This document shows, piece by piece, positions 3,091-28,300 of a stretch of DNA of 64,000 bases (positions are counted from its first letter, which is position 1; every line of letters begins with the position of its first letter). A program made the translations under genes and the position numbers. Source of the DNA: Lingula anatina (Eukaryota; Animalia; Brachiopoda); assembly GCA_051362555.1 (NCBI GenBank), contig CM120643.1, positions 11,568,644 to 11,632,643 on the forward strand. The letters are read 5' to 3'. A model generated the notes under the pieces. That model searched no databases and was not told the DNA's origin. It saw nothing but the letters and a program-made list of their open reading frames with translations.

Positions 3091-3346
3091 TACTGATCTC
3101 GAATTCTAACGCGAAATAACGCATATGAAATTTATCTCCAAGCTGAGGAGAGCGACGCAGACGAAACCTTGAGACCGGAGGCCCCCCGTAGCTAGCTCCG
3201 CCCACCGTAACAGACATCGGACAATAGAAAGGCTTGCGTGTAATCTCCTTCTGTTATAACTCCTTGGTTTTTACCATGTCTTTAAATACATGATGTACGT
3301 ACGGAGCCGTAATTGATAACGTACGCTCCGGGAACGTACATGTTTG

Positions 3347-4254
3347 TATGGGCGGCCAAAAGGGCAAAAAATCCTGTCGTCGATTCAGTTATGTTTCGTC
3401 GATTCACTGCCTTCCCATCGATTCAGTTTCAAGTTTAAACGATCCTGTCATAAATTCAACATCTACTTTCGTCAATTCAACTGTCAAACATTTCTCATCT
3501 ACGGTGTATTAAAACCAATGCCGTCACTATTTTCGTCGATCGTGTAACTATTCTCGTCGATCGTCTAATCTCGTCGATCGTCCAACTAATCTCGTCGATC
3601 GTGTAACTATTCTCATCGATCGTCTAATCTCGTCGATCGTGTAACTATTCTCATCGATCGTCTATTCTCGTCGATCGTCTCATCGATCGATCGCCAGAGG
3701 GCGCTGCGGTAGCACATTGGCCTATCACATGACTATCAAAATGGCAGACAACAAAATGATTGCTAGTGAAATAAGAACATTTTCTCAACAATTTCAATTT
3801 TAGTTGTTAATAATTAAAAGACATTCGGTTGTAGGGACATTATTTTCTAGTTGTGCTTAACTCTGACCATGGCTGGCCGAGTTAAAAATTACCACGTGAT
3901 TGACAGACAGAAGCACGTGTTGCTACCGCAGCGCCCTCTGGCGATCGATCGATGAGACGATCGATGAGAATAGTTACACGATCGACGAGATTAGACGATC
4001 GACGAGAATAGTTACACGATCGACGAAAACAGTTTGACGATCGACGAGATTAGTTACACGATCGACGAAAATAGTGACAGCATTGGTTTTAATACACCAT
4101 AGATGAGAAATGTTTGACAATTGAATTGACGAAAGTAGATGTTGAATTTATGCCAGGATCGTTTAAACTTGAAACTGAATCGATGGGAAGGCAGTGAATC
4201 GACGAAACATAACTGAATCGACGACATGAATTTTTGCCCTTTTGGCCGCCCATA
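3347..4254. mobile_element. Non-autonomous foldback DNA transposon, IS3EU-like termini
   Basis: ~340-370 bp inverted arms, TATGGGCGGCCAAAAGGGCAAAAA...TTTTTGCCCTTTTGGCCGCCCATA. Flanks tgtttg/cgtttg (6-bp TSD, one CpG-type mismatch). Internal tandem TCTCGTCGATCG units. TAY..RTA ends with a 6-bp TSD is the described IS3EU pattern. Confidence 0.8.
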
Positions 4255-5078
4255 CGTTTGTCCCGGGTCATTTAATTTTAATTTTTATATCGCTTTCCGT
4301 GTATTTTGTAGTGATTCAGTCATGGTATATTATATATAACGTAAGGATGTTTTTTCTGATAAATATTTTTTTAAAACTTGTAACTCTAGGGGCTTTACGT
4401 CATGGCTAATGATATGTAACGTATGTTCGCCAGAAAAAATTGCCAGAAAGTTTCGTCTTATAGTTCTATGGTCTTACCCAGGTACTTGGTGCAATAGGAA
4501 ACAGGTCTTTCTGTTGCTGACTGAAAATTATGTTGTGATTCCATGATAGTTTGACATTTATGATACAATATTTGTACCACGAATGGAAAATAGTTTATTT
4601 ATACATATTTTACTGTCGGTGGGGTGGATTTTCCCCGTGAAGTGACAAGCAAACTATAGTCGCTCAAAAACGATTATACAGAAGATTATCATTATTCTAA
4701 TTTTTACGACGTTATACTTGTAGGAGATAAATCAAAGAACGGAACCAGTGATGATTGAATTTTCAACGTGAGTAAAACTTTTCACAGCAGGACGTTTTGT
4801 ATTCGTGATAGTAGCGTACGTTCCTTTTCTAGGGCTAGACGATGACTTCATTTTTACAATTCATGTTTCTAGGAGAGTGAAACATTGACATATACTTCTA
4901 CATGTGGGGCCCTAAAATAATTAAGCATAGTTTGCAATCTGCGCCCTAAATATTTTAAAGAGCATGCCCGTGACCTCATTTGCACCTCACTACCTGACAT
5001 TTATAATAGGGTCCTGTCCTAGCGGGCAGTGAGTGTCAACATCTGCTCACGTCAGTCTGATGAAGGCCTATTAGGTTG

Positions 5079-6114: not shown

Positions 6115-6340
6115 CTATTCAAGTAAGTTTTTCTTTTGGCTTTTATTTTCACATGCAATTTTTTAAACTTTATTTCTACACCAGTTTTAGCGCTGAACAA
6201 GCCCTTGGCAGCGAGGCCTTTTCGTTGGTAATTTCGTCATCTGTAATGTTAGAGATTTTACAGATGCCAACACTCACATTTTCTTTGTTTTGAATATGTC
6301 TTTTGTCCGTCACTTTTCCTTTACTTTCGCCACCACCAGA
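6115..6340 (-). mobile_element. LINE ORF1 fragment (same family as 13146-17569)
   Basis: QNKENVSVGICKISNITDDEITNEK matches the ORF1 segment ENL.VVICNI..ITDDEI..EK of the other copies. Confidence 0.75.
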
Positions 6341-7226
6341 TGTTATATAATATTTTGGCGACGAAGCCGATGCTGAAAGTCGCAAAGTCTAGTACATGAA
6401 GATGCAACAGCTTTTTTTCAATCCTCAAAGACTTGACTTCTGCCTCTATTGTTAGTCTGTCCGCGGCTGTTGGAATGGTTTGGATTTTTCTTGTGCGCCT
6501 TGGCCACCCCTTTCCACTGGTAAAATTTCTAAATGTTAATTTTAATTTTCCGCTCTTTATTATCCCAATCCATTACGTTAATTGACGGGATCCCTGTGGC
6601 CTACTTTTTATTTATACGTTGTAACATGTTGAGCTGTCTCTGCTAATCTAACGATACGTTCTATTCCTTTGTTTTTCGAGGTAGGCTTTCTGCCTTTTGT
6701 TAAAAGTATTACTACATTTATAATACTCCAGTAATAGAGACATTTTTTTTTTTTTTTGCTCTATTTAATAATTACATGAAAACTGTGACGAAGGGAGTCA
6801 CCGGAATACTCGACACGGGGAAAGTAAAGACAATTATGCGATAAGGCTAATAAATTATAATAACGCAATGAGAATTAACTAAAAAGAAAGATGTAATTAT
6901 TAAAGGTGAGGGCACAGGGGGGGGGGGGAGGCATGCGGTTTCTAGCACATTTACTAGTGTTTCAGTCACATTCTCACAAATGCAAGCTAAATCTATTCAA
7001 TTGAAGACTGGTGTGACTGCGTCACTATTTAGATTGTTGGTATTTTGATGGTTAAACAGGGTTTGTTTTATTTTTCTCATGTTCCATTGTAAGCCAGCCG
7101 GTCCTCTTGCTATTCGGTTGTTCTGTGTGATTTTTACGTTTAAAAGTAGATGGTCGCTACCGACGTCTTCGTATACATAACAGCCCTATATTTTTTAGTA
7201 AAGTTGAGTCGCGACCCAAAATTTGT

Positions 7227-8309
7227 TCACTTAAAGGCAACATGGTGGATAGTTTCGCCATCTATATTAACTTTGTAGATGGTGGCGACTGCTTCCGCTA
7301 TATCTTTGCAGATGTCACTTTCATTTGTTTGTATTTTTAGGCGTTTTGATGTAATTTTGATAAGTATTTTCGTTAGGCATATTGCCAGTTTTATTGATTC
7401 GCTCACATTTCTCTTCTTTGCGTTGTCTATTGCAGTGCGCTTTTGTTCTGAGTTAATTTCTTTTTTGTATACCTTGCATCCTTTGAAAGATGCAGGGTGT
7501 TTTTCATTGCAATTGGCGCAGTTGCAGCCGCTTTCCGAGCATTTTTTGTGACTGTGCGCCCCTCCACAGTTCTTGCAAGTCTCGGGTGACTCGCATTGTT
7601 CGGCTACGTGCCCGAACTTTTGGCAATTGCAGCATTGTTTAACCGTGGTTGTGACTGGTTTGTAGTCACGCACCTTATATTTATGGTAGCCTAGTATTAG
7701 CCCTTTTTGCAGCAATTCTGTCTTTTGATGTTTGTTTTCGCATGTTATTTTCACTTTGTTTATTTCTGTGCCAGTTTTTGCACTGAACATGCGCTTGGCT
7801 ATGAGCCCTTTTTCGTTCGTTATTTCGTTTTCTGTAATATTTTGCGAGATGTTGCATATGACAACAGTCAACACTCAGATTTTCTTTGTCTTGTAAATTC
7901 TGTTTGCCTGCCACTCTCCTTAGGCCCACCTCATTTAGTCGACTTTCTTTTGCTTTCAGGGAAAGTAGGCTATTTGCCGAAGTTTTGTCTTTCACAAAGA
8001 TGAGTGTGTGTCCCCTTTTGGTTTTGATTGTTTTAGTGATGCTTACATCGCCAAGCATCTTTTCGAATTTGATGGGATTGTCAGTTAGGTGTTTGGGCAA
8101 GTTTTCAAATAGGATGGGTTTTGGATAGGTGCCCTTTTGATTTTCCGGTTTCTTTTTGTTTTTGGTTTGTACTTGAGTCCACTCCATTTCCTCGCTATCG
8201 CAGCCAGCCTCCTCCCCGCCCCGTGAAGGGTCGTTTTCTGGGCTATTGTTGGCGATTTTGTCGGAATCGCCTCCTACTGCCCTGTTCTTTTCCGTTAATT
8301 TGGCCCTTT
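7227..8309 (-). pseudogene. Gag-like ORF1 (3' part) of LINE copy A, frameshifted
   Basis: QCCNCQKFGHVAEQC..TCKNCGGAHSHKKC..CANCNEKHPASFKGC zinc knuckles. Confidence 0.85.
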
Positions 8310-8907
8310 TAGTCGCTTACCTACACTGGTCTATCGTTTCATTGTGTGAAAAGCTCCAGTGGCCAGACAATTTTCACGGTGCCATGAAGATAAACAGTTA
8401 AAAAATATCCACAATAAATTCGGCAACCGTAGGATGCGCCAACATATAGATAATTGCGATAGTATTTATGCCAAAACATCAAAATGAATAGCCCTGCCGT
8501 TCCAATCGGCAATCCTCGACTGTCGAGTGCGGAGACATCCGAGTAGTTCCAAGTGCTGCCGTTCTACCCTTTAAACCAATCAAAGCAACGGAAAGGGGTC
8601 ACGTGATCACTTGACCTACATCTGATCGATGTAAACAATGAATTTCCATGCGAAGCTTGCACATTTAATAGATGATTCCCATACGTTGTTTCAATAAAAA
8701 AATACGTCCTAGGTTTTTAAAATCGATGTCAATATCGAGAGAAAGATTTAAATAGTTGGAAAATACGTGTATTTTAGGTGTATTTATATAATTGGCTAAA
8801 TGATGGCGTGAATTCACGGCAAAAAGGTATGTAGTATAGCCCGTAGACTGTGCACTGTACCACTTCTACAATCGCACACAGGTCACACTATTACCCAATA
8901 TAGTGAT

Positions 8908-9075
8908 CAGGGGCGGATCCAGAGATATTTTCTGAGAGTCTTCCAAATTATATTTGTTGATCCATCCTCTACTTTTGACCGTCTTCCGACAGAAAAAATT
9001 AGATACCCGTCAATGTAAACTTGAAAATCTGACCGTCTTCCGGAAGACCCAGAAGACGGCCTAAATCCGCCCCTG
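8908..9075. mobile_element. hAT-like MITE with 5-bp TSD (related copies 33259-33359, ~47231-47370, ~24004-24300)
   Basis: TIR CAGGGGCGGAT..ATCCGCCCCTG, TSD gtgat. Confidence 0.85.
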
Positions 9076-9549
9076 GTGATCATATAATCACTTGCATGTA
9101 TGTTCAGTAATGTTACATTGAATGCATTTTAAATTCTCAGTTGTGTTAAAGCGCATATAATCACTTAAAATTATTTGACTCAATATTTTACACTGATAAA
9201 TAGTATAAATCCATGTGTAGAGTTACAAACTAGGTATCATGCGGACTGTCTGTTTATGAAGCTGGAAAGTGCTCAAAAAATTATTTCAAAAATATATAAG
9301 TGCTTCACTAGGTAGAATAATTGAGTTTTTTATGTTCAAGTTTATCTTTAAATTGCAGAGGTACAATTTTTAAAGAAGTTTAATTGTTGCAACTAATTGC
9401 AGCATTGTCTAGTAATAACAGCATATTAAAAGAAATAACAGCTCACATTTAACAAGGCTTTTATGATATATATAACATATTTTTCCAACTTAATTATTTC
9501 AACTGTGAAATTATAACTTTCTACATTTCTTGTGCATATCTGAAAAAGA

Positions 9550-10015
9550 ATAATAAAATGCCAGGTACACTTAAAGTTTTGCAAATGGATTTTAGGTCTA
9601 AGAAAGCAGGCTAGCAATACCATTTTTAGAGCTAAGCTTGGCAGTTACCCTATTATTTCAACTATAACTAAACCTGTCTAAAGATTAGTCTTAGACTGGA
9701 ACAACTACTAGTAGATAATAGAACTGTAAATCAGGTGCACAGTCTTGAGCAAGATACAAAGGGAAACACATGGACAGAATCTATCCGAAGATAACAACCT
9801 ACCAAAGAAATTATATCAAATAGAAAACCTTTTAGAAATATTGAACATAAAAATCGAAAAACACTTCTGGCAGGAATTAAATAGCTCAATCTCAAACAAA
9901 TTAAGGACATACAAAACAATAAAAAAAATATTATGAATGTGAAAATTACATCAAAATGAGTGTCTCCCCATTAAATATCAAAACACTTGCAAAAATTAGA
10001 CTAAGTGACCACAAC
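9550..10015 (+). mobile_element. RTEX-like LINE C-terminal fragment
   Basis: VHLKFCKWILGLRKQASNTIFRAKLGSYPI ... NKLRTYKTIKK..ECENYIK..KTLAKIRLSDHN resembles the post-RT region of RTEX/CR1-group ORF2. Confidence 0.7.
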
Positions 10016-12104
10016 TTTTTTTTTTTTACAAATAATGCAGATAGCTGGCAGCACTGGTGACTTTGATATACCAAACCCTGAGACTGATCTCAATTTCTTG
10101 GGAGATGGACCTTGTATTTTGGGAAGAGTGCAACTGGTTGATGGTTCTGTAAAAGAAGCAAAATAACATTTTACTTTTCATACCATATATATTAGTGCAT
10201 TATAATGTGCAGATACTGACTACTACAGAAACAACTTTAACGTTGGATAAATATCCAAGTGGGTGTAACAAAGATATGTAAAAATAGTAATGTGCTCAAA
10301 ATTCAGTTATAAAAACAGTTGCCCTGTATAAATAAAAAGACAACATAGAATACATATTTCAAATAAAAACATCTGGATACCTGGATACACAAATGATTTA
10401 GCAAATACAGAGCAGACCGCAAATCCTTGATTGTTGCAAGTGCAATTGTATATACAATCACTATGATTTAACTATAAAATAAATAAATAATAATGAAATA
10501 AGATAAGACAGTCGCATGTGAGTTTATCACATGATTGACACCAAGTGATATTAACAACTATAATTACATATATCCTCATGATTCAAAGGGCATAGGGTAG
10601 GTATAGGATTCAATGTATTAGTGGCTCAGCATGTTCCTTTTATGAGGAACTAAGCTGTAACAAACTATAGGCAAATGAGACCCACTGTTTAATATTTGTT
10701 GCAACTAAGACAAATAAATCAAGTTTAAAGATCTAATAATTAATAGGGAGCCCACTAGCATTCTGCTGCCCAGATTAATATCAGATGCCTTGAATAAAAT
10801 TGACTCTTCTCTTTAAACTGAACTACATCTACCAGTCACCCTACTCATTATAATTATTCCTTAATTGATACTGTTTGTCAACGTATTTCTTTATTGATAC
10901 TATTTATGTATACCTTTACTGATTTTATTCATAAGGGAAAGTTACAAGGATTATTCCTAACAGTCCTAATTAAATTAATCACATTGCAGCTTGTTCTGTG
11001 AAAAGCTATCCTACTTTTTCTGGCTCACAAGATACAGTAAATATTCCCTAAAATACATTCTCATTGAAGTTGGGCTTAGCCTATACATATTTATATTCAC
11101 TAATGGTTGCACATGTGCAGCAATGTAACTGGGGGGGAGGAACACTCCACAAATAACATAAAAGATTCTACCATGATACTTAAGCCTTTGTCTCATAAAA
11201 TCCCACCATAACATTTGTTTGTATATCTTGTTGTGTGAAGCCTTACATTATTTTGTGTAAATGCAATGCTAATATGGATGAACTAATAATGAGATGTTAA
11301 TCATGGCAAGAACATACAGCTAGCTTAGGCTGTATTCCCAGAGCTTTTAGATTGATCTGTCCCCGTGGGGAGTCTCACTAGATTACTGTCAGATAATCCG
11401 GCTTAAATGTCCGTCCCGCCTACTACAAGCTGTAAGGGGGTATTTAACTTTCGTGTCCGCCCCACTGACAGCTGTTTAGCGTGAACCCCTAAAGTAGATA
11501 TATCTAATTTCTGGAAATGGGGTCTTATTCAACAGAGAATGAGTTGTTTCATATCTTAAAACCTCTAAGTATTTACAAATAAAATAATAATAACACTAAT
11601 AAACTTTTTTATCATTTTCTTCTTTTTTCTTTCTTTCATATCACTTTTATCAGTCACATATTGTTATGTAACATCAGCCACGTACAATGTAAACATCACA
11701 CGATCAGGGCTGATTTAAAAACAAATTACAATATGTTGACATACCTTCTTCAGCAGGACTGCCTTGTTTCTCAGCTTTCTCATACTTCTTTGCCGCCTGA
11801 GATAGCCCCTTCTTGTTAGTTAGCTTTCTGTAGCAAGAAAAGTGACATCGTGGTTTGGCTTCCAAATCGTCGAATCCTTTATCTAAATCCGTACTGTACG
11901 GATCCACTGAACAGCAGCGGCTTCTCTGCTGCCAAATTTCCGCCATTGTTTCGCTGCGACTCTAAAATTTTCCCAGCGAACACGTGTGATGGTATCTAGA
12001 GTCTCTTAATTAGCTACCTTCTTCTATGTGCATGCAACACGAAAGATGAGAATTTGGCGAAGATTTCGCGTCTCCCTCCTCAGACTCTTCATTACAGCCG
12101 TCAT
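10016..12104 (-). pseudogene. Academ transposase N-terminal exons (12104-11745, 10146-~10016), frameshifted and truncated
   Basis: CCMH..RWENFRVAAKQW..CHFSCYRKLTNKK, donor G|GTATGT, phase-matched acceptor ttacag|AA giving EPSTS..PKKLRS..VLPAICIICKK. Family assignment is from recalled motif resemblance plus the element termini. Confidence 0.65.
11326..11490. mobile_element. Partial copy of the PIF/Harbinger-like MITE at 39660-39864 (another copy ~26905-27160)
   Basis: Shared ctcactagattactgtcag...ccggcttaaatgtc.gtcccgcctact..aagctgtaaggggg. Confidence 0.7.
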
Positions 12105-13559
12105 GCTGCTTTGTTTACATGGCATGGCCTGGTGGGAAGGTGACGTGACCCCTTTTCCGTTGCTTTGATTGGTTAATCTGATCTGAATCTGATTAAAAGG
12201 CTCGAACGGCGGGGCTATTCATTTTGATGTTTCGGCATAAATACTACCGCAATTATCTATATGTTGCCGCACCTCTCGGTTGCCGAATTTATTGTGGATA
12301 TTCTTTTACTGTTTATCTTAATGCACCGTGAAAATTGTTTGGCCACATCACATATTGAAGGAAAGAGCTTTTCTAAACGCTTTTATGCATATCAGGTAGG
12401 GGACTATTTTAGCGGCCTTCTTTTTAGCTTTCTTGGAGAGGTTTTCACCCTCCCTATTCACTCTTACAGGGCTGGTTTGGTCTGGGACCAGAGGACCTGT
12501 CTTCCTCTTTTCTGCTTTTCTTTTGTTTTTGTCACTGTTGTGCATATCCTCTTCAGGGACCCCCTTTTCTCCGGTCATCGGTTGACCGGAGCCGCTCCTT
12601 TCCTTTCTGGGGTCCTGAAAAGGGCCATCAAGAGCTGGTACACGGCCCTGCTCTCCTTCCGGCACCTTCGTGCTTTCAGCCATCTCAGCAGGTTCACGGA
12701 CCTGCTTTGCTACCTGGTTCTCCTCACCCCTGGGAGAGCTTTTCAACCCACTGGCAGGTACACGGTCCTGCCCCTCTGCTGACTTTCTCCTCGCCCCTTG
12801 GAGAGTCTTCCAACTGACTGGCAGGTACACGGCCCTGCCCTTCTACTGACTTCTCCACGCCCCTTGGAGAGTCATCTGTTCCACAGGCAAGTACACGGCC
12901 CTGCCTTGCATCCGATCCCTCATACTCACCTTCGCCACGGTCGGCAAGCAGTGCTCGCCGGAGCTGTGGCGGTAGAGAAGCTAGAACCTCCCGAAGGTGG
13001 TTCAGCATCTCAAGTTCTTCGTTTTGTGTTGGATACAACAGCCTTTGCGTAAGACATTATTGGTATTAGCTTGGTATGTTGAATGTTCAATCGACCTAAT
13101 GAATCAAAGTGATAGATGGAATGAAGAAATCTGGAATGATCTGCCTGTAGTATAAGTTTGCAACGGCGAAGCCGTTGCGGGAAAGTTACGAGGTCTCATG
13201 CGTCGAGATTCAAGAGCCTCTTTCAATCCCCGAGTTCTTGTATATTTTCTTCTGCCTCTATTGTTGTTGCACGTCTGTCCGTGGTGTTATTTGGGTGGCT
13301 TGGATTTTTTTCCTTTCCTCTTACGCTGGCCGCCCCTCCAGCTTGTGTATTTTTTCCAGATGAATCCTTTTTTTTTCCTTGTTTCAGCTATGATTATTCC
13401 AATTCCTTCACCTTGTCTCCGGTCGTCGGGTGACCAGATTCTTTCCTTAATTTTGAATTGGTGTTGCCCTTTTCAGGGCCAGTTGTATTTTCTCCGGTCG
13501 TTGGGAGACCGAAGCCGCCAAGTTTTTCGTGCACGATCTGTATCATTATTTATATAAGT

Positions 13560-15777
13560 CAAGGGTAGTATTTTTGCCTGGTTTGCTTACTATTATGTTT
13601 TTCAGCTTTAGTTCTTTAAATAGGAGGTTATTTTCAAACCTGCTGATTGTTTTTGTGCCCAGAAAAATAGTCTGCTTGATATATATTCAATGTTAACCAG
13701 CCAGTTGTAATTCGAGTACTCATAGGAAGTTTGAGTGCTATGCGTAGCGCTCTATTTTGAATTTTTTGTAGGTCGTTGAGCCTTGTTTTTTTGGTAGCCG
13801 CTAGTATGACCGCACCGTATTTGAGTATGGGTCGAATGAATGATTTGTATAATTTTAGGAGGCAGGCACTCGAAGACCCCCAGTTTGTACCTGTCAGTCT
13901 GATAAGAAGGCCAGTTCTTTTCCTGGCTCTTTTCACTATATTGTCAACGTGTTTTTTAAATGATAGTTTCCTATCAAAGGTGATTCCTAGCAGTGTTACT
14001 TCCTCACATGTTTCTAAACGGTCACCAAAAAGTGTGAGGTTGAGCTTAGGTTGTTGATTTGATTTTGAAAAGATGATTAATTGTGTTTTTTTTTTTGGTG
14101 TTTAGTTAAATCCGCCTTAGAGAGCACCATAGTTCGAGATCCTTTATCACACCAGTCAGTCTGGTTTCTATGCTTTTGACATTTTTGCATGATGTCCACA
14201 TGCCTAAATCGTCTGCAAATTGAGAGACCTCGGTGTAGTATCTTGGGTTTATTGAAGCAACGGGCTGATTACAGACCCCTGAGGCATGCCAGCATTGAGA
14301 CTTGCATATTCGGATGCCTCACCTTTGATTCTGACCTTGATCTTTATGTCTTTCAAAAAAGATGACAGCAAGCGGACAATCTTAACTGGCAGGTTACTAT
14401 GTGCTAATTTGTACCTTAACCTAGCGTGCCAAACTGAGTCAAAAGCCTTCTCCACGTCAAGCATCATAGCGCCCGTAACCCAGCCTTTGTTCATTGCCAG
14501 TTGTGCACTTTCAGCTAGTCTTAGCACATGTTCCATTCCTTCCTTCTTGCTCATGTACGCTCTTTGCCATTTATTGAAGTATTGGTCATTTTCAAGTTTT
14601 TCTTTTATTCTGTTTGCGATTATTCTCTCGAATAGTTTGCTTAGGCAGCTTAGCAGGCTGATCGGTCGATAATTCGTTGTTATTTTGTGATCTTTCTCAG
14701 GTTTGGGTATCATTATTCCAGTTGCTTCTTTCCATATTGTGGGGAAATATCCCAACTGCAGACAGTTGTTATAAATGTCGCATAGTTTGTTTTTTAGACA
14801 TTCAGGTAGTTGTACATGATTTTATAGAAAGGGCCTTCTTTCTTTTGAGCCAGGTGTCTTAGTTTTCTTTTCAGTTTTATAAGCTTAAGGGTGTCCTCGC
14901 TTACTCTCCATACATTTTCTCGTATCTTTGTTTTTGGGCATGCGGTTTCAAGTGCATTTATTAGTGTCTCGGTCACATTCTCACAAGCTTCGTCTATTTC
15001 AGTGGTGGTAAGTGTGACTGCGTCGCTATTTAGGTTTTTAGAAATTAGATGGTCAAACAGTGGTTGGTTTATTTTTCTTGTATTCCGTCGTAAGACGGTT
15101 GGTGCTCTTGCTATTCGGTTATTCTGTATGATTTTTACGTGTAGAGGTAGATAGTCGCTACCACCATCTTCACCTACATAACAGTCCGCTATTTTCGAGT
15201 AAAGTTGAGTCGTGACAAAAGCCATGTCCAGAGTATCAGTGTTGCCGTTGGTGGCCATATGTGTTGTTTCGCCCTCATCGTTAAGATTGATCAGATCTAA
15301 TTCTTCACTTATGTCAAAAAGAACGTTCCCGGTATTGTTTTTTTTTTTTTTTTGCAACCGAAGAAAGCATGTTTACTGTTGAAATCACCTAAAAAGAGGC
15401 AATGTTGGTATTGATCAGCAAAGTGCTTAAATACTGCTTTGTCTAATGTTATATGCGGTGGATTATATAATGAGACTATTACCGTTTTTCTTTGATTTAT
15501 TGTAGTCTCTATTCCCAGAACTTCAGCTGTGAGGTTGCTGGTGTTGATAGTTTGGAACTCTGTCTTTCTTAACGAGTATTGCCACTCTGCCCCCGTGTGC
15601 ATCCCTGTCCTTGCGCAACATCTGATAGCCGTTTACTGACATTTTTGTCCTCTCACTCAACTTAGTCTCATTTATGCATACGATGTCGGGTTTATGCTCT
15701 ACCAAATATTCAACTAAAAGTTGTTTTTTGGATTTCAGACTGTTTATGTTGATATGCAACAGATGTACCGCCATCAT
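13560..15777 (-). pseudogene. LINE ORF2 (APE endonuclease + reverse transcriptase), disrupted
   Basis: HININSL..PDIVCINETKL, GDFNSKH, TLDMAF, GSDYLP; NYRPISLLSCLSKLFERII, LDVEKAFDSVWH, GMPQGSVISP, FADD, WGSSS..LYKSFIRPILKYG. Confidence 0.92.
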
Positions 15778-15814
15778 TTAGGTGGAGGGGTTGATACGTG
15801 TTTGTGTGTCCGTT

Positions 15815-17514
15815 TTACTTAAAAGCAACGTGATGGATAGTTTCACCATCTATGTTGACCTTATAAGTGGTAGCTACAGTTTCTGCTATGTCTTTACAGA
15901 TGTCGCTCTCGTTTGCCTGTATCTTTAGTCTTTTTGATGTCATTTTGATAAGTAATTTGGCTAGGCATATTGCCAATTTGATTGATTCAGCAACATTCCC
16001 TTTTTTAGCATTGTCTATTGATATGCATTTTTGTTCGGTGTTCATTTCTTTTTTATACACCTTACATCCTTTGAAAGATGCCGGGTGTTCTTCTTTACAA
16101 TTGGCACATTTGCGGGTGCTTTCTTTGCACTCCTTATAACTGTGCGCCCCACCACAGTTTTTGCAAGTCTCGGCTGACTTGCAGTGTTCGGCTACGTGCC
16201 CGAACTGTTGACACTTGTAGCACTGTTGCACTGGTGCTGTGACTGGCTTGTAGTCACGAATTTTGTATTTTTGATAACCCAGCAACAAACCGTTCTCAAT
16301 CAAGTCTTTCTTTTGATTTTTGTTTTCACACGTAATTTTCACCTTGTTAATTTCGCTTCCTGTTTAAGCGCTGAACATACGCTTAGCTAACAGAACTTTT
16401 TCTTTTCTGATTTCATCGTCTGTTATTGAAACTGCTATGTTGCAGATGACCACGCACAAATTCTCTTTATTTTGTTTTTTGTTCGCTACTTTTCTTATGC
16501 CAACCTCATTTAGTTGGCTTTCTTTATTTTTCAGGGCAAGTAGCTTCTCAGCTGAAACCTCATCTTTGGGAAAGATAAGGGTGTTACCTTTGTTTTCACA
16601 ATTTTAGTGATATCGGCATCACCAAGCACCTTCTTTAATTTCAGTGGATTGTCATCCAGGTGCCTAGGCAAATTTTCTAACATAATGGGCCTAGGTCTTT
16701 CTGCTTTTTTGTTTTCTTGTCCGCTTTTTTTAGTTTCAGGGTGGACAATGGTGCACTCTGATTCCTCGGAGTTTCCCTCCTCGCCCCGTGGAGGGTCGTC
16801 TGCTGGAGCCTTCTCGGTGATTTTGCGGAAATCGCCTCCCACGGTCTCCACCTTCTCATTCAGTTTGTCACTTTTCTCGGCCTTTTTCCTTGCTTTCTTT
16901 GAGAGATTATCTCCCTCCTTCTCCCCTCTAATGGGGCTGGTTTGGTCACCGACCAGAGGACCTGTCTTCCTCTTTTCCCCTTTTTTCTTTCTTTGCTCAC
17001 TAACTGCCCAATCCATTTTGCTGTCCCCGGTCATCGAGAGACCGGGTGTCTTGCCCTTCTTTGGATGGGCTTTGCCCTCTTCAGGGTCTATCATTTCTCT
17101 GGTCATCGGGAGACCAGAGATATCTGCTGCCTTTTTGTGGCCCTGAAAAGGACCACTGAGAGCTGGTACACGGCCCTGCTCTGTGTTTTGAATCTCCTCA
17201 CCCCTTGGAGAATTAACCAACCGATTTGCAAGTACACGTCCCTACTCTGTATCTAAATTCTCCTCACCACTGGGAGAAATTGTACTTGTATCTTTGCTTG
17301 CAGGTACACGGCCCTGCTCCGACACCTGCTTCTCCTCGCCCTTGGGAGAGCAATCCTGTTCATACTTACCTTTGCCACAGGGATCAGCTAGCAGAGCTTG
17401 CCGAAGCTGTGGTGGTAGAGATGCCAGTACCTCCCTAAGGTGGTTCAACATCTCTACCTCCACGTCCTTAAAAGGACGTTTTGTGTTGGATACAACAGCC
17501 TTTGCGTACGACAT
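15815..17514 (-). pseudogene. LINE ORF1 (nucleic-acid chaperone, 3x CCHC), disrupted
   Basis: MSYAKAVVSNTK start, EQGRVPA..SPRGEE repeats, QCYKCQQFGHVAEHC..CKNCGGAH..C..CANCKEEHPASFKGC; split over several reading frames. Confidence 0.88.
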
Positions 17515-17569
17515 TATTGGTATTAGCTTGGATGAATGGAATGATCGAATCAATTCATGCTTCTGAATC

Positions 17570-17700
17570 GGAATGATCTGCCGAAGGTTGCCTTGTTTTA
17601 TATACTCACATATCCGACGCCAACGATCTTCAAGACCAAACCTTACCTTGATTGGCCAAAACGACCACTTATGAGTGTAGAGCGATATGATTGGACAAGT
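17570..17700 (-). promoter_or_regulatory. Pol II core promoter: two CCAAT boxes, TATA box, TCATTC initiator (histone-gene-like)
   Basis: Minus strand: CCAAT at 17694-17690 and 17655-17651, TATATAAAA at 17604-17596, Inr A at 17574, exactly 30 nt downstream of the TATA start. Confidence 0.7.
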
Positions 17701-18074
17701 CCTCAATTCTTAGGGTTCTGACACATTTCAGCTATCTTGCACTTTCATTTTTCTTAGGTAAGGAAGATGACTTCAAGAACGTCACAGATGTTCGATCCAA
17801 ATTGGTGGGAATTAAGTATATTTCTTTTGCAAATTTTGATTTCTTTCAGAAATCCACTAAACGTGATGATACATACAGAAATATGCCATTCCTTCACTCT
17901 GCCTCGGATTCAATGCTGCATATTTTAGCACACCTGTCCCACATACAGTTATACAAATTCAATGATTTTAATAAAAATACATCCAATGAGGTGCACATGA
18001 AATAAGATGGAAATTTGGGTCATCCAATCACCAAATAGACCGCCTTATTACAAATCTCCCTAGCATATACCCCA

Positions 18075-18850
18075 AATCATTTTTTGCTTTCTTAACGAGT
18101 ATAGCCACCCCGACCCCGTGTGTATCCCTGTCCTTGCATAACATCTGATACATGTAGCCATTCACTGACTTTTTTGTTTACTCACTCATCTTAGTATCGT
18201 TTATGCATACGATGTCAGGTTTATGCTCTACTAAATATTCAACTAATAGTTTCTTGGATTTAAGACCGTTTATGTTGATATGACTGTTTATGTTTATGTT
18301 GATATCAGGTGTGCCGATATCTATAGGAGGTGTGGTTGATGAGTGTAAGTGTCTGCACCTGTTTTACTTAAAGGCAACGTGGTGGATAGTTTCACCATCT
18401 GCTGACTTTATAAGTGGTGGCTTTTTTATTTGTTGATTCAGTTGCCCTTGGGCCCATTCTGTAATTCAGACACAGTCTTATGATGTGCATGTCTTCAGTG
18501 CTGCTTAAGTGCAGTTTACCTTTCTCATGGAAAATAGTTACTGAGCCACCTTCATACACATATGAGTACTTTGAACAATTTTGCAATTGACAATTGCCAC
18601 TATAACAACTTATTATGCTGTGAATCTGCTCATCCCCAATGCTGTCTTCCTCTTGTAGGTTTGATGTTCAGACTCCACTGTGATCTGGACAAGAGTTATC
18701 TTCCCCTCTTATTCTGAGCAGTATGGCAGAGCTTGTTACCAGTGTAAACACTGTATAATGTTTTGTATAAGCTTCCCTCTTTCTTTTGAGCTAGTCTTCT
18801 CATTTTTCTTTTTAATTTGATTAGTTCGTGTTTTTTTGCTGACTCTCCAA
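18075..18850 (-). mobile_element. Degraded fragments of the same LINE family (EN start, ORF1 end, ORF2 linker)
   Basis: 18075-18310 aligns with 15570-15780; 18365-18420 with the ORF1 end (ATTYKV..DGETIHHVAFK); 18755-18850 with 14810-14910. Confidence 0.75.
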
Positions 18851-18876
18851 GTATGTCCGAGTACTCGCAATACCTG

Positions 18877-18906
18877 TAGCTCAGTTGGTAGAGCGGAGGA
18901 CTGTAG
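18877..18906 (+). tRNA. tRNA-Tyr(GTA) 5'-half fragment (pseudo-tRNA)
   Basis: TAGCTCAGTTGGTAGAGCGGAGGACTGTAG is the D-arm/A-box plus anticodon arm of eukaryotic tRNA-Tyr up to the intron position. No acceptor stem or 3' half. Confidence 0.8.
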
Positions 18907-18935
18907 TGGACAGTATGAGAATACTGGAGCAGTTG

Positions 18936-21655
18936 AATAAGTTTGTCGGTGAAGCCGAGGAGGGAAGTTACGAGGACCAAAGTCTTGTGACAGTGGCCTC
19001 TTTCAACCCTCATGCTTTTGGGACACAGCAGGAGAAAAATAAATAAATAAATAAATAAATAAATAAATATATAGATAAATAATAAATAAAGTAAATAATC
19101 AGAAAGAAAGAAAAAAATACAATTAATGGTAAGAAGTTGTTCATGAAATCCATATTCCACTTGCAGGCATTGTGCCCATTTGTATTTGTCTAGAGCAGTA
19201 TTGCTGTGATTTCTCTGGATGAGTAATTTTTGGATGTGTAACGCTTTCATTATGAGGCTGGAGGAGTGTTTCGATACCCAGATGAAAAAGTCTGTTGGAT
19301 ATTGGTTTGAGGTTTGCTGTGTTACGTAGATGCTCAATTTTGGTACCATAGGGCATTTTTAAGGCTATGCAGAGGGCTTTGTTTTGGACTTTCTGCATCT
19401 CCACTTGTCATGTCTTGTTTGTGGTAGCAAATATCACTGCTCCATATTTGAATATGGGGCATATGAATGCCTTGTATTCTCTAATCAAGGTTGAGCTTGA
19501 GGTACCCCAGCTGGTGCCTCTCCGTCTTACTAGGAGATTGGTCCTCTGCCTTGCTTTGGTTGTTATGTTTCTTGTATGTTTTTTAAATGTCAATATTTGG
19601 TCTAGGGTGATTCCGAGTAAGGTGGCTTCCTTGACTTGTTTGATTTTTTCGCCAAACAGGTGAACTTCAGGCTGTATTTTCCTTTTTTTATTATGGAAAA
19701 CCACTGAGTTTTTTACGTGTTTAGTTTGATTCACCACAAAGAGCACCAGAGTTACAATAAGTCTGAGTGCTGCGTTTAGTCTTATTTCCAGTGCTTTTGT
19801 ACTTTTGGCACTGGTCCATATTCCGAGATCATCAGCAAATTGTGATGCTTCCACTTTGTGGGAAGGGTGTATGGGGAGGTCATTCACATATAATAAGAAA
19901 AGAAGAGGGCTGAGGACTGACCCTTGCGGTGTGCCTGCATTCAGCCTGACAGGATGGGAGACATTTGTTCCTACTCTAACTTTTATTTCTCTGTCATTGA
20001 GGAAAGAAGATAGCAGTCTTATGAGTTTGTTCGGAATGCAGTAATGCCCTAATTTATACTTGAGTCCATCATGCCACATGCAACGGATGCTTTTTCTACA
20101 TCAAGCAGGATTGTTCCTGTGGTCCACTGTTTATTTATAGCAAGTTGGGCTGCCTCAACTAATCTGACTTTGTGCTTGATTCCTTCTTTTTTTTCCAGGT
20201 ACGCTCTTTGCCATTTGTTGAAGGCTCTTGTATGTGTTTTGGACTGTAAGTGCTTTTATGAAGTCAAATGGTACTTTGCCTCGGCTTCGGTGCTGCATCT
20301 GTTGTGTGCTGGGAAGCGCGTGAAGTGCTGGATCCCCTTATTTGTGAAAACAGGATAGACTGAAAAAATGAAACAGAAATAAATAACAAAATTAGCATTT
20401 GAATTACTACTACATAGTTATACATGATTTTACAAAAAGGGCTTTTTTGTTTTGAGCTACGTGTCTTAATCTTATTTTCAGTTTTATAAGCTTTTGGGTG
20501 TCCTCACTCTCCATATATTTTCTCCATATATAATCTTTTTTTCTTTGGGCATGCAGTTTCTAGTGCATTTACATGCTAAATCTATTCCATTGGAGGCTGG
20601 TGTGACTGTGTCACTATTTAGGTTGTTTATAATTTGATGGTTTAACAAGGTTTGGTTTATTTTATTGATGTTCCATTGTAAGCAGATTGCTGTTCAGTTA
20701 TTCTGTATGGTTTTTGTGTAGAGGTACATAACAGTCCGTTTAAGCCTAGTCATGACAAAAGCTACATCCAGAGTATCAGTATTGCCGTCACTGGCCATAT
20801 GTGTTCTTTTGCCCTCATCATTAAGATTAATCAGGTCTTGCTTTTCACTAATGTCGACACAAACCTTTTTGGTATTTTTTTTTTTTTTTTTTTTTTTTTT
20901 TGCAACCGAAAAAAAAAAAAAAAGTTTACTGAAATGGAGTATAGCCACTCCACCTCCATACGCATGCATCTCTGTCCCTACATCTGAAGGCTGCTCACTG
21001 TCATTTGTTTTTTCACTCAAATTAGTCTTGTTTGTGTATACAATGTCAGGATTGCACTCTACCAAATGTTCAACAACTAATAGTTTTTTTGTATTTAAAA
21101 CTGTTTATGTTGATATGCATCAGGTGTGCTGACATCTTTAGGTTGTGTGGTCAATGCATGTTAATGTGTTGCAACTGTTTTACTTATCTTGGCAGAATCC
21201 TCCAAGTAGACCAATCATGGACTGTTATTTTTTTTTTGTGTGTGTTGGTATTAAGTTTGGTTGATTCAATTGCACTTGGGCTCAGTCTGTAATTCAGGCA
21301 CTGTCTTAGGATGTGCATGTCTTCAGTGTTGCTAAGTGCAGTTTACCCAAGGAATATAGTTATAGAGCCACCTTTACGTCTTCCTCTTTTTTTTATTGTT
21401 TTGCTTGGTGTTTCACCCTCTTTAGGATTGATTTTTCCCTCTTCAGGGCCTCCAGTCATTGGGAGACCAGAGATGTTTCCAGCATTAATTTTTGGGGCCC
21501 TGAAAAGGACCATCAAGAGTGCTGCGTATGGTGACTCCCTGTCCCTTTGAGTGCCCCTAGCTCCACTTGCAGGTAAATGGCCCTGCTCCACAACATGCAT
21601 CTCCTCGCCCTTGGAAGAGCCTTCCTTAACCTAGTAGCAGGTACTGTACACTGCC
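18936..21655 (-). mobile_element. Divergent, 5'-truncated LINE copy C of the same family
   Basis: ORF1 remnants 21180-21655, EN 20720-21140, RT 19400-20225 (GTPQGSVLSPLLFLLYVNDLP, QFADDL). 3' end 18936-19010 is homologous to 13151-13230. Confidence 0.85.
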
Positions 21656-21732: not shown

Positions 21733-21926
21733 CAGCACTGGTGTGGATTTTGTTGTTTCCCATCTTGCTTGGTCATTACTTTTTGTTCAGCTTAAGTTAA
21801 AAAAAAAATCCAAACTTTGGCTGATATTCTGGGTGTCAAAGATGATACTTTTTATTTTAGTCTCATTCCATTTTTCAGAAAATACTTTAAAAATTTTCTT
21901 TTAGCAGCATCCCAAAAGCAAAAAAG

Positions 21927-22232
21927 AACATTCAGGGTATCACCAAACCAGCCATCCATTATTTGGCTCGCCATGGTGGTGTCAAGCATATGCTGTAAGC
22001 GTATCTCTGGACTTAACTGTGAAGAGACCCGTGGTGTCCTGAAGGTGTTCCGCAAGAATGTCATCCGGACTCCATCACCCACACTGAGAATACCAAGAAG
22101 ACTGTCACTGCCTATGGTGTATTCTATGCTTTGAAATGACAAGGCCATACTCTGTATAAATTTGTCAGTTAGGCAGATCTATCTCATTAGAAACATAAGG
22201 TCCCTTTAGGATGACAAAACGTAAAAGAAAAG
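21927..22232 (+). pseudogene. H4: Histone H4 pseudogene (5'-truncated, frameshifted) with degenerate 3' stem-loop and downstream purine element
   Basis: NIQGITKPAIHYLARHGGVK/KRISGLNCEETRGVLKVFRKNVIR/DSITHTENTK/KTVTAYGVFYALK*QGHTLYKFVS* (stop 22172). GGTCCCTTTAGGATG at 22199-22213; AAAAGAAAAG at 22223-22232. Confidence 0.92.
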
Positions 22233-22308: not shown

Positions 22309-24912
22309 AGTAAAAATCCAAAGAACTGTCATAGAAAACAATGGAATATCTTGTAGACAAATACATACATATATACACAGCTAATCTTATGAAGTATCCT
22401 GTAAACAAGTTAACTTAGTATATATTGTGTAGTCAGTTGTACTAGTACCCTTTGGTTATCCTTTACCTCAGTGCATGCAGTCATTTTTGTTAAATTATTC
22501 AATTAGTGATAAATTTATCCTGTTGAGGACAAAATGTAAGACATGCTTTTTTAATCACCTTTTTAAATATCCCAGGATCAAGGGTTGGTCAGTCCAGGAT
22601 TAATAACTTTTACCCACATGAAATTTGTTAAATATGCATTTTTTTGGTGGGAAATTCTTTTGATGTTTTTTAGTACCTTTATCTGACTTTCATGTAAATT
22701 ATGACCAATTTGAATCTTCTCATGTCTAAGAAATTTTGTGGCTCCATAGTGTATCTGCATGGTTCCATGTACTGAACATCAGATGGGCAGGGATTGTTTC
22801 TTTTTATATTAATGAACTATTTTCTGTTGATATATGTATTGGTACATAGTTTTGCAGGCCAACCTGCAATAAATTGTTCACATTTACTAGGTTGTCATCA
22901 AACTTTGAGGTCTGTAAGCATTTTTTTATTTAAAAACCTAAATTTGATCTTCATGAAAATTAATTTTATAATTTTCACTCCAATTCATTTACTTATACAA
23001 CTTCAACCTTTTTGTAATAAACTGATTATCATTAGAATTATTACTGTTAACCCTTTCCTGGTCAGAAGGCCTGAAAAGGCCCATGTATATCAAGTTTATT
23101 TTAAATCTATCTGTTTGCATATTTTTGAACAATCATCTTGAAATTTGGCAATTAAATGCAGGACAGTAATATCAAACAATATTTAAGTTAAAATTACTGG
23201 GTCCTTGCAGCTTTTTTAAAGCAAAACAATGTTTATTTGCCTTTTTGTTTTTCAAGTTATATTGATATTTTTTTCATTAGAGATAATTATTTGTAATTAT
23301 TAATTATTATCTCTGAATATCATTGGAACTCTATGAACATTTAAGTCAGAGGAGATAATTAAGAAAAAGAGAAATAATATAAAGTTGAGAAATACACTAG
23401 TGGTGTGACAACTAATAAGTGTTGTTTTAAGAACCTTTTGAGTACACTTGCATTTTTCTATCAACAGTGAAAATTTCAAGCCAATACAATGAAAAATACG
23501 GATGCTGTGACATTTTTAGTAAAACAGTGTTTTACCGCAGAATTAGTAGAATTCCACCAGAGATAAAGATAAAATGGAGATAAATGTTTATTTATCCGAT
23601 AATATATATAATATCAATAAAAAAATGTTCTGTACAAGCATTGTATAAAAAGAAAGACAATAAAAGCTGTATGAATAAAAAGTTTAAGACTTTGTATTAA
23701 AAAAGATACAGCTAAAGGATAAAAGCTATATGAAAAGCTTTTGATACCCTTAAAAAATAAGTCTGGGTTTGCTGGGTAAAAAATTTAAAAAGATGTGAGC
23801 GGGATGAAATTTAAATCTTGATGAAAATAATTTGGAACTTTCCTGTAAAATACAACAACATTGGGCATTTTCAGTTATAGAGAACGGTCCCTCTAAGATC
23901 CTTTTTATGTCCTTTCACAACAGTGGGAGCAAGGGCAGATTTAATTAATTTCAATATCCAATTTCTTGTATCAAGTACAATTTCTTGCAATTTCGTGGGG
24001 TTACAGGTTGGATCCAGGATTATTTGAAGTGGGTGTCCATGGATGCGAAGCCGACTCCCTCCTCCCCCCCCCCCCCAACCCACACACACTTGGCGTGGGG
24101 TATGGGGCCCTTTACTGGGCCCTGAAAATTTTTGGTATTTAAGAGGGCAAACAGTGGCTTTTGGTATGGTTTAGAACTATGATTCAGCTAGTCAAATTTC
24201 CAATTTCTTGAGGGAACCATTGGTGTGATTTTTTTTCTGAAATCGAAGGGGGGGGGGGGGGGGTTCAGGACCCCACTGACACCCCCTAAATCTGCCACTG
24301 ACATATAAATACAAATTATGCTCATTTATTTTGCTGAAGGGTTGTTTTATAGGTATAAAAGTGACAAAAAATTTAAATCATTGTGAAATATAGCAATTAC
24401 AATAGGTCAAGGTTCACCCAGATTTGAGGCACTTTTGGGAAGAAAGTTATTTAATTAAGAGAATGGAAAAAGAATTTTTGTGGGATTATTTCTAATAACT
24501 TGATTTATATCTAAGCAGGGGCAGATCCAGGATTATTTGAAGGGGAGGGGGGTCAGCGGATTATTAATGTTTAGCACTTTGTGTACTGAGTATGTACTTG
24601 ATCACAGACAAATGCTAGTATGTGTCAAAATTATCCTGAAAAAAGGCCATAACCTATGTTTAGAATTTTATTTTAATGCTTTATAATATTTAAATTATTT
24701 TTAGAAATATTTTTAACATAAATTTCAAACCAAATTCACACAGCTGTGGCACTGCCACAATCTATGTTTTATGGGACCTTAGGACTGGAGGGTCCATACA
24801 TTTAAGTATTAATATCATTTAAACCTTAATTTATTCCTGTAATATTTTAATTGAAATGCATGTGAGTTTACATTAGTAATTTAGTAGGTCTATTATAATT
24901 CCAATGATCTTT

Positions 24913-25328: not shown

Positions 25329-28300
25329 ATGTCTACCCAAAACATAGATCCAGCTGCCAGCGGAGCAAGGAACAAAGATATGTCAGATAAAGGGAATAAG
25401 CCAAAAGACACGCATTCTGTTAGTAAAAGGTAAGATTAATGCGTGCCGTACTCTGTAGTAATATGATAATATGATGAACAAAACCTTTTATTGAATCATT
25501 TTCTTCATTCTTGCAATACATTATCCTTGTATTTTACATTTTTACGGTGGTTTACGTTTATGTTTCAACTTTTAATATCCCTATTGATTTTCACACTAAG
25601 CACAATTGTAAATATAAAAGTTTATGTATACTCGAGTTGCCAAACTGAATATAAAGAAATTTGTTATTTTTGTACTACAGATTGCAGCAAGAGCTGATGT
25701 CGCTTATGGTAAGTCCTGGGCTTGAAGAGTTAAATGCAAACACAGGGAATTTTGAAATTTTAAGCATAAAGTTAAGTGTGATTGATCAAATCAATATATA
25801 ATATTTCACAGGCTGCATTGCACAGTGTTAAATAACCATACAGCATATGAAGTTCATGCACTTAGGCAAAACATGTATTTAAAACTTACACTTAGTCTCT
25901 TTAAGTCTATTCATGACATTATGGAAAACCTGTGTTGTATGTGTTAAGCCTCTTGCAGGTTTGAAGCCTGTGTGACAGCTTCTGATATTTGCTTAAATTC
26001 ATACACACCCCCTCGCATCTGTAATTTCTCATCATTTTAGGAAAGTTTGAACTATTGCACTAATCTCTAATGGTCAGTAGCATGAGTCCATTGATAACAC
26101 CACAGTATACTATTTGAAACTATGGTGGTATTTTGTTGGTTTTAGTGGCATTGGTACAGCATAAGTATACTTGCTTGTGTGGGTTTCCCCAGAATTTGGG
26201 GTAGAGGGTATCCAAAATGTGAATCTGTAATTTGGTCTTAAATGTTCAGACAGTCCATCTAAGTAAGGCAAACTAAACAACCCAAAATTTTTGTAAGCCG
26301 TCCAGCCCTCTTTGAAAATATAGGTATGTAGGCAGTCATTTGAGGCTAAAGGCTGTGCAAATGACAGCTGGTTATGGCTCTCTGGGAAAGACCTGCTTGC
26401 TTCATATGTGCCTTTAACTCTTTCCATTGGTTGTTCCAGATGTCTGGTGAGACGGGAGTATCTGCCTTTCCTGATGGTGATAATCTGTTCAAATGGGTTG
26501 GAACTCTACAGGGAGCAGAGGGGACTGTAAGTACAATGATTAAAAAAAAAAGTTAAGCTGTCCAGCCATCTTTGAAAATATAGGCCGTCTTTGGAGGCCA
26601 TTGGCCATCCAAATGACGGTTGGACAGATGTTGGGAAAAGCCTTTTTTGTAAGACACATTTTATCTCTTGGTGAAAAAATAAAGTGAGCTTAAGTAATTA
26701 TATTCTCCACCAAGAACGTTATGATTTTGCTTTTGTATGTTGGTTTTATAGTTTGCCCGAATCATGTAGGGATTTTAATAGCATATTCACTGTAGACTAA
26801 CTTAGATCCAACTTTATTAGGATAGTGACTCACTGATCTATTGATAATTGAATAGCAGTTAGAATTGAGCAGCTTTGGTGGAGGTCTGCATGCCTTGTTA
26901 GTTTAAGGGACCATTCCCTCAGATATTTGGATCGATCGATCTCCCTAGAGAGTCTCACGAAATTGCTATCAGCTTAACTGGCTAAAATGTTTGTCACATC
27001 TAGTAAAGCTGTCAGGGGTTAATTATCTTTACCCCCTAGCTGATTCGATAGGTGACCGTGTTACAGACATTTAAACTGTTTAGTTAATAGCAATTTAGTG
27101 AGACTCCCCAGGGAGTTAGACCAATCCAGATGGGTCGATCTAGGCATAGGAATCCTGTCTAAGATGTGTATCTGTTCACCTCCCAGGTGTATGAAGGTCT
27201 GAAGTACAAGTTAACACTGGACTTTCCAAGCTCCTACCCCTACACTGCTCCAGTGGTGAAGTTTGACACACCCATCTTTCATCCCAATGTGGACACCAAC
27301 GGCAACATTTGCCTGGATATCTTGAAGGAGGAGTGGTCAGCTCTCTACACTGTGAAGACAATATTGATTTCAATTCGCAGTTTGCTTGGAGGTAAGAATC
27401 ATGAACATTATGGTTTTACTCATTATCACATGTGCATGTGGGTTAGTGCATACACACATCACAAAGCATAGAATGGGATTTTGAATATGTTTCATTTATG
27501 TTTTATAAAACTATTGTGTCTGACATTGTGTTTTTGATTGTGATTTTTTAGAAGCTTGCTTTTAAAATATGTTTCTGTTCATTTATAGAATGCTTTTATA
27601 AATGGGGTTGTTTTGAACTTTATCAAAATAAAACCTAAACAAAACACTAAGGGCAAAAGTGGTACTTTCAAGTTTGAAGAACAAAACAACATGTATTATG
27701 ATGTGTTTTGCTAGTGCTGTTTTCAAACTTTTGGATTTCATTCTTAATAGCTGTTTCTAGGTGGAACTGAATCATTTTTGTTTAGTGGTAGATGAAAAGA
27801 TAGCTTGATCAATTATTAATTTCAGCTTGAGTATATAGTAAAAAAAATTATAATTTTAAATAAAGATGTGCTCAAGTAAACAAACTCATATTGCCACTTG
27901 TGTTAGTGACTGTAATTTCCCTAGCCAAGATGAACATACAGTAATGCTCTGTATCCTCTCCAGGGAGGTGAGAATGCCTACACCCAGTCTGAATGAGGGA
28001 AAAATATGCCAGGCATATTTCTGTATTGTTGACTATTTAAAACCATGCTAAGATGCAGTGGAGTGGTATATGAGAACCAGACTTTACTATTTATTGTACA
28101 GTACTTTTACTTTTCAATTACTGCATGTGTGGCAAACATTGCCCATAGGCTTGCTATTCCAAAAATAAATTTTTCCATCAATCTGAAGTCTTATGCCAGA
28201 GTGTTGCTCCCGTGTACATCTTGTCATAGGGCACAAACACAAAACATGTTCCACTGTTTCAACTACATACTGATAGCTGTAGTTCCTCAGGTGAACCAAG

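Follow-up and report, generated by a model that had tools for sequence, protein, structure and literature searches.

The window analysed here, a stretch of 64,000 nucleotides from the brachiopod Lingula anatina (GCA_051362555.1, contig CM120643.1, positions 11,568,644 to 11,632,643 of the forward strand), contains on its minus strand a long interspersed nuclear element (LINE), named copy B, whose 5' target-site duplication covers the predicted start of a promoter-like block. The feature is real and can be described as a variant of the target-specific LINEs in which the target is defined by its position at an RNA polymerase II (Pol II) start, a rule that is well supported in a sister lineage found in an animal histone array and likely in Lingula. 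Start-site targeting as such we consider highly probable, and borrowing of the host promoter we consider probable. The reading as a whole, namely that the lineage probably chooses where to insert by the position of Pol II starts, likely uses the host promoter and likely favours multicopy histone genes, has in our opinion a good chance of being correct.

Copy B is a decayed LINE of Lingula with a 13-bp target-site duplication; the host is this brachiopod, as shown by an exon in the window with 99% identity to its NHE3, and a sea urchin can be rejected. It comprises about 4.4 kb with two frameshifted open reading frames (ORFs) between two arms of GGCAGATCATTCC (minus strand, 17582-17570 and 13145-13133). 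Both arms were found where the initial annotation had placed them, no third site is present in the window at up to one mismatch, and only 4 of 19,874 pairs of 40-nt segments drawn at random from the window shared at least 13 bases. An apurinic/apyrimidinic (AP)-like endonuclease (EN) followed by a reverse transcriptase (RT) in ORF2, together with the target-site duplication and the absence of long terminal repeats (LTRs), identifies it as a non-LTR retrotransposon of the AP endonuclease type, and PF03372, PF14529 and PF00078 match fragments of copy B as well as intact relatives. As had also been claimed, the downstream arm abuts the start of an older copy, A, without a gap, B and A being 91% identical over 76 nt and 70-78% thereafter. 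From its architecture we tentatively assign the lineage to the Jockey clade, which it resembles in the knuckle-bearing ORF1 (the zf-CCHC match is weak), in the EN and RT encoded by an ORF2 of about 900 aa and in the lack of RNase H, a family not found in any of the 16 proteins scanned. It differs from Jockey in its tails, which consist of short repeats with no poly(A). The Jockey clade uses an internal promoter of initiator and downstream promoter element (DPE), whereas by-eye motif reading of the B and A leaders revealed no such spacing (no RGWYV at +28 to +32 from initiator-like motifs). In an RT tree, which was built from 42 of 115 rows of relatives and contains no clade-labelled references, the lineage branches apart from the named insect RTs.

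The elements upstream of copy B are located where they had been annotated relative to A 17574, with CCAAT at -120 and -81 and TATATAAAA at -30. An additional CCAAT lies at -231, and the CCAAT pairs of the block 17580-18081 point outwards on both strands. We determined the summed contig depth in four DNA runs (X1, X3, X4 and X20), a measure that is no copy number, and obtained values of 1069-2207 (X1), 1663-2011 (X3) and 189-254 (X4) over 17562-18122 and of 85-143, 94-277 and 15-36, respectively, over the LINE 5' end, while X1 contigs near-identical to the window have a depth of about 40 and in X20 only the far third of the block is deep. Read from this depth, the block is present in tens of copies, being multicopy as is a replication-dependent histone promoter. 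The high-depth contigs part from the window at 17580 and 18081, some of them having lost 74-379 bases of the middle, and the loose ends beyond these points are too short to display a histone coding sequence. Depth and contig ends set block and element apart, so that the block is separate from the LINE and can be ruled out as a part of it, a possibility that the initial annotation had named as fatal to its own reading. Block and element are spanned by one 366-nt contig of X1, possibly the window's own sample, with no difference.

To find relatives, genome contigs were scanned, which returned four loci. One of them (L062) is a eukaryotic contig in the bacterial genome G001, whose contigs C2, C3 and C5 (L062-L070) are animal histone arrays and thus eukaryotic contamination; three further bacterial genomes (L059-L061) carry LINE contigs of contaminating eukaryotic origin as well. 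The G001 contigs form a tandem array with a 4.6-kb H4-H3-H2A-H2B unit and 51 intact histone starts, and nine LINE copies interrupt it. With +1 set at the only CATTY found within 120 nt of the respective ATG, eight of the nine are inserted in sense orientation within -12 to +12 of the CATTY of H4, H2A, H3 or H2B. The duplications cover -12 to -1, -12 to +1 and -12 to +12 at H4, -11 to +2 at H2A, about -6 to +1 at H3 and, in a second family, -2 to +6 at H2B, and two further copies, cut short by the end of their contig, join H4 and H2B on the 5' side, where the exact match stops at -3. As the three H4 copies are only 83-86% alike and yet have a common junction at -12, they represent separate events at one base. 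The probability of the pattern arising by chance is 2e-15 and, when each site is counted once, 9e-10, for a +/-12 window that was chosen after the data had been seen. The junction sequences differ among H4, H2A, H3 and H2B and no single conserved target sequence exists, which makes the targeting rule positional. Thus, from the initial proposal that the family inserts at TCATTC starts the start-site position stands, and the fixed TCATTC target has to be dropped since the relatives share position, not sequence, and the high-copy Lingula blocks leave the window at 17580. In the RT tree G001 family 1 joins the branch of copy B (support 95/89), with the named insect RTs outside. Copies with an intact ORF2 exist (G001:C5), which renders the rule testable. 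The copy at the H2B start (L066, 426-5701, minus strand) belongs to a second, distant LINE family and possibly acquired the habit independently. In G001 an H3 leader was also seen to be interrupted by other DNA about 17 nt past +1 (L064, 3491-3914). The interruption of an H3 leader at C2:32491 has no LINE match and is not among the nine copies.

Whether the Lingula block is a histone promoter can be judged from circumstantial evidence, by which we lean towards such an assignment. A search with histone proteins (tblastn) detected a histone H4 pseudogene at 21921-22163 (plus strand; codons 24-101, E 3e-11, 74% nucleotide identity), the sole histone match in the window, which a Pfam scan of 95 of the 534 stop-free stretches of at least 45 aa had missed. 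It lies 3.8 kb past the block and is oriented as the array unit of G001 and Owenia would predict, with H2A and H2B diverging and H4 following H2B in the same direction; the accessible text on the Owenia histone array describes the same unit as the H4-H3-H2A-H2B array of G001 (PMC12153100). The best surviving alternative, unlikely in our view though it has to be taken seriously, is a general targeting of start sites with no preference for histones. In that case the Lingula block would drive some other repeat, such as a transposon, and copies would gather in histone arrays only because active starts are plentiful there. Its main support comes from 58 metagenome loci, in 11 of which the 3' end of a relative could be placed by eye: TCA[GT]T lies within 25 nt of the 3' end in four of the 11 (background 5-7%, P 0.006), and no histone is found at those loci. 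This motif fits a putative wider start-site habit. The 3' end of L013 is located about 90 nt ahead of the ATG-like start of another gene and that of L009 ahead of an initiator with GGACG at +28, no core histone stands behind the Lingula promoter, and for the salmon Nimb LINEs the accessible part of one report gives 18% of copies in promoters (PMC11960703). A lack of histone preference is, however, difficult to reconcile with histone-type stem-loops in two distant lineages, with the orientation of the H4 pseudogene and with the bidirectional double-CCAAT layout. In the five metagenome loci with two possible ends no convincing duplication was seen, and none of 74 candidate stretches from viral contigs contained a relative. 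Locus L008 (60-135) is a 5'-truncated relative behind ATTGG and TATAAG motifs.

The leaders of the Lingula copies are built from short [CG]AT[TC] units, six within 45 nt in copy B (shuffle p 1e-4, pattern picked by eye after viewing) and seven within 65 nt in copy A (shuffle p 3e-4, likewise picked by eye), and in G001 the H2B leader is repeated in that of family 2. If transcription of an element begins at a host start within its 5' duplication, every new copy should inherit a few bases of the host. We infer that the leaders of B and A, which resemble stacks of initiator fragments, may be a trace of such promoter borrowing. The locus could also be explained by self-nesting, where the family has an internal initiator-type promoter beginning with ATCATTCC and inserts into the 5' end of its own kind, the upstream TATA being incidental. 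The position of B exactly at the 5' end of A, the stacking of several same-strand copies, the absence of TCATTCC from the high-copy blocks and the initiator-like GTTCAYT at the start of the G001 family-1 leaders agree with self-nesting, which we nevertheless regard as improbable as neither length nor sequence is the same in the A and B leaders, which lack initiator-DPE spacing, the TATA is at exactly -30 and every G001 copy sits in host DNA and none within another LINE copy. Very improbable is an untargeted insertion into accessible promoter DNA through chance or open-chromatin bias, as might be argued from a single Lingula locus and many genomic copies, since three diverged copies coincide to the base at H4 -12 and eight of nine are in sense.

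A histone-type stem-loop is found in the sense strand of ORF1. The histone-hairpin pattern has three matches in the window (0.05 expected), one each in B, A (12626) and C (21511), an older relative; these are homologous and have to be counted as one event. In copy B a complement to the stem-loop sits 50 nt downstream; the two are predicted to pair in a long hairpin that masks the stem-loop. In G001 a histone-type stem is kept in all four complete family-1 leaders, with one pair changed on both sides, so that such a stem-loop lies close to the 5' end of the element in both lineages. At the Rfam gathering score none of nine loci gave a match, and as this includes the real G001 histone stem-loops the cut-off is uninformative here. 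A role for the stem-loop binding protein (SLBP) in the life of the LINE is speculation. As separate observations, the family-1 leader at L070 (10090-10345, minus strand) and three others have a 9-bp 5' hairpin and a likely intron of 60 nt with a branch-point motif kept in the genomic copies. The segment 13414-13510 (minus strand) in the 3' untranslated region (UTR) of copy B repeats the hairpin-rich ORF1 segment 17022-17115 (72%) and includes an antisense stem-loop-like motif, and a further imperfect histone-stem-loop-like sequence was spotted by eye at 23065-23082 (minus strand).

Several points weigh against a start-site rule with histone preference. Every +1 used is a motif call, and besides the dependence on one Lingula locus the G001 sample consists of histone-array contigs only, near-identical proteins sitting on contigs of up to 5.7 Mb. 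The RT identity to copy B is 37-41% for G001 family 1 and 26% for family 2, the placement of which in the tree is uncertain, and the ninth G001 copy sits in antisense orientation within a GT repeat, about 290 bp ahead of H4. In Lingula no empty allele was present among the 15 of 39 joints listed, a target-site duplication at the presumed 3' end of copy A and TCATT in the 3' flank of copy C were looked for and not found, and tblastn revealed no remnants of H2A, H2B or H3 in the window. The high-copy block versions diverge at 17580, inside the duplication, so that TCATTCC may be the first leader unit of A rather than a host initiator, in which case B would have hit the start that drove A. Among the other relatives TCA[GT]T is missing at seven of the 11 metagenome 3' ends, which were set by eye, and L001-L061 contain neither a histone by tblastn nor a histone stem-loop by pattern search. 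With regard to the stem of G001, the covariation is no better than that of shuffled sequences (84 of 500) and the stem-loop overlaps a likely 3' splice site.

For positional targeting of Pol II starts we propose the following model. The endonuclease would nick the template strand some 8-12 nt upstream of +1 and the opposite strand around +1 to +5, positions which roughly correspond to the edges of the open promoter bubble. The element would end up in sense orientation between TATA and gene and be transcribed from the host start, and the few host start-site bases passed on to the daughters might give rise to the stacked leaders. Copy A would have inserted first and copy B would then have hit the start driving A. 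The displaced gene would be severed from its promoter, a loss that the redundancy of a tandem array could tolerate. A more far-reaching version, which we consider doubtful, is a widespread invertebrate LINE lineage that targets the open Pol II start complex, occupies histone arrays on borrowed promoters, stacks 5' tags from host starts and carries a maskable stem-loop by which its RNA gains access to the machinery of histone mRNAs (SLBP, histone locus body), be it to be expressed or to home. If the model is true, base-precise insertion relative to the Pol II starts of histone genes, which code for proteins, would be new both in the class of target and in the rule of targeting, it would account for the persistence of a LINE that has no promoter of its own, and the LINE would be a source of histone-array turnover. 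A start-site-seeking, sense-oriented integrase might also be of interest for promoter trapping.

R2 and R1 (28S), NeSL (spliced leader (SL) exon), Utopia and Keno (U2) and other Tx1 families likewise insert in multicopy genes. R2-type targets are recognised by sequence, whereas the targets described here are protein-coding genes that have the position in common and not the sequence. TRE5-A of Dictyostelium and Ty3 of yeast are position-specific relative to the transcription start, a property they share with the copy B lineage, but their targets are RNA polymerase III genes reached via TFIIIB; moreover, Ty3 is an LTR element and TRE5 inserts upstream with its own promoter. Tf1, the P element and 297, the latter having been found in the TATA box of Drosophila H3, prefer Pol II promoters as does the copy B lineage, from which they differ as LTR or DNA elements with own promoters that use broad windows or a TATA sequence target. 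In HeT-A of Drosophila 5' tags accumulate. According to the accessible text of PMC5537684, the promoter used by its head-to-tail copies lies ahead of their 5' end. HeT-A hence borrows from a neighbouring copy at telomeres, in contrast to the proposed borrowing from a host gene. Reliance on transcription from the flank is described for R2 in the available part of PMC4494074, which takes as the criterion for a sequence-specific LINE that a single multicopy target holds over 20% of all its copies and in which the word 'histone' does not occur. The accessible portion of PMC4640811 lists rRNA, SL, tRNA and snRNA genes, transposons, microsatellites and telomeres as targets of such LINEs; histone genes are not listed there. 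In line with the initial annotation, which knew of no LINE specific for histone starts, none emerged from a literature search that had most subscription papers and Repbase Reports outside its reach and did not cover supplements.

Table 1: Positions of copy B, its promoter block and related features in the window.
Feature	Position	Strand	Remarks
Multicopy bidirectional promoter-like block	17580..18081	.	Host or host-repeat DNA; likely H2A/H2B-type spacer
CCAAT, CCAAT and TATATAAAA	17596..17694	-	Motif positions relative to A 17574
5' target-site duplication	17570..17582	-	Covers -8 to +5 of the predicted start (A at 17574); +1 by motif only
Copy B leader	17515..17574	-	45-nt variable stack of initiator-like units, then start common to A
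Copy B ORF1, broken	15815..17514	-	ATG 17514; N-terminal repeats; three Cys/His knuckles; zf-CCHC E 0.005 (weak)
Histone-type stem-loop in ORF1	17139..17154	- (sense)	Rfam Histone3 20.4 bits, E 0.15, below gathering score
Stem-loop complement	17074..17088	-	Predicted masking in long hairpin, z -3.75
Copy B ORF2, broken	13549..15777	-	AP-like endonuclease and RT; no RNase H found
Copy B 3' UTR	13146..13548	-	Terminal motif common to relatives; no poly(A)
3' target-site duplication	13133..13145	-	Second GGCAGATCATTCC arm
Copy A 5' part	12407..13132	-	65-nt stacked leader and ORF1 start
Copy A continuation, internally deleted	6340..8277	-	Resumes past inverted-repeat element; 3' end presumed to lie near 6340
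Fragments of older relatives C and D	18087..21630	-	Same strand as B and A
H4 pseudogene	21921..22213	+	tblastn; includes decayed stem-loop-like remnant at 22199-22213, read by eye

The minus strand carries all LINE relatives in the window: C, D, B, A and, near 6200, a scrap Z. Copy A is interrupted by a 4-kb inverted-repeat element (8359-12346) with terminal inverted repeats of 120 nt that are 91% complementary; it contains exon-like pieces and gave no Pfam match on the four stretches scanned. Beside the 3' end of C, the segment 18878-18910 (plus strand) resembles the 5' half of a tRNA, presumably Tyr-like, for which neither ARAGORN, which called no tRNA in the window, nor Rfam gave a call. 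A foldback element with 223-nt arms and internal repeats of 17/21 nt occupies 3346-4255, and a fragment of a ubiquitin-conjugating enzyme is found at 27163-27468 (plus strand). Exons of a Na/H exchanger gene extend over 38728-61187 (plus strand), one of them being 99% identical to NHE3 of Lingula anatina.

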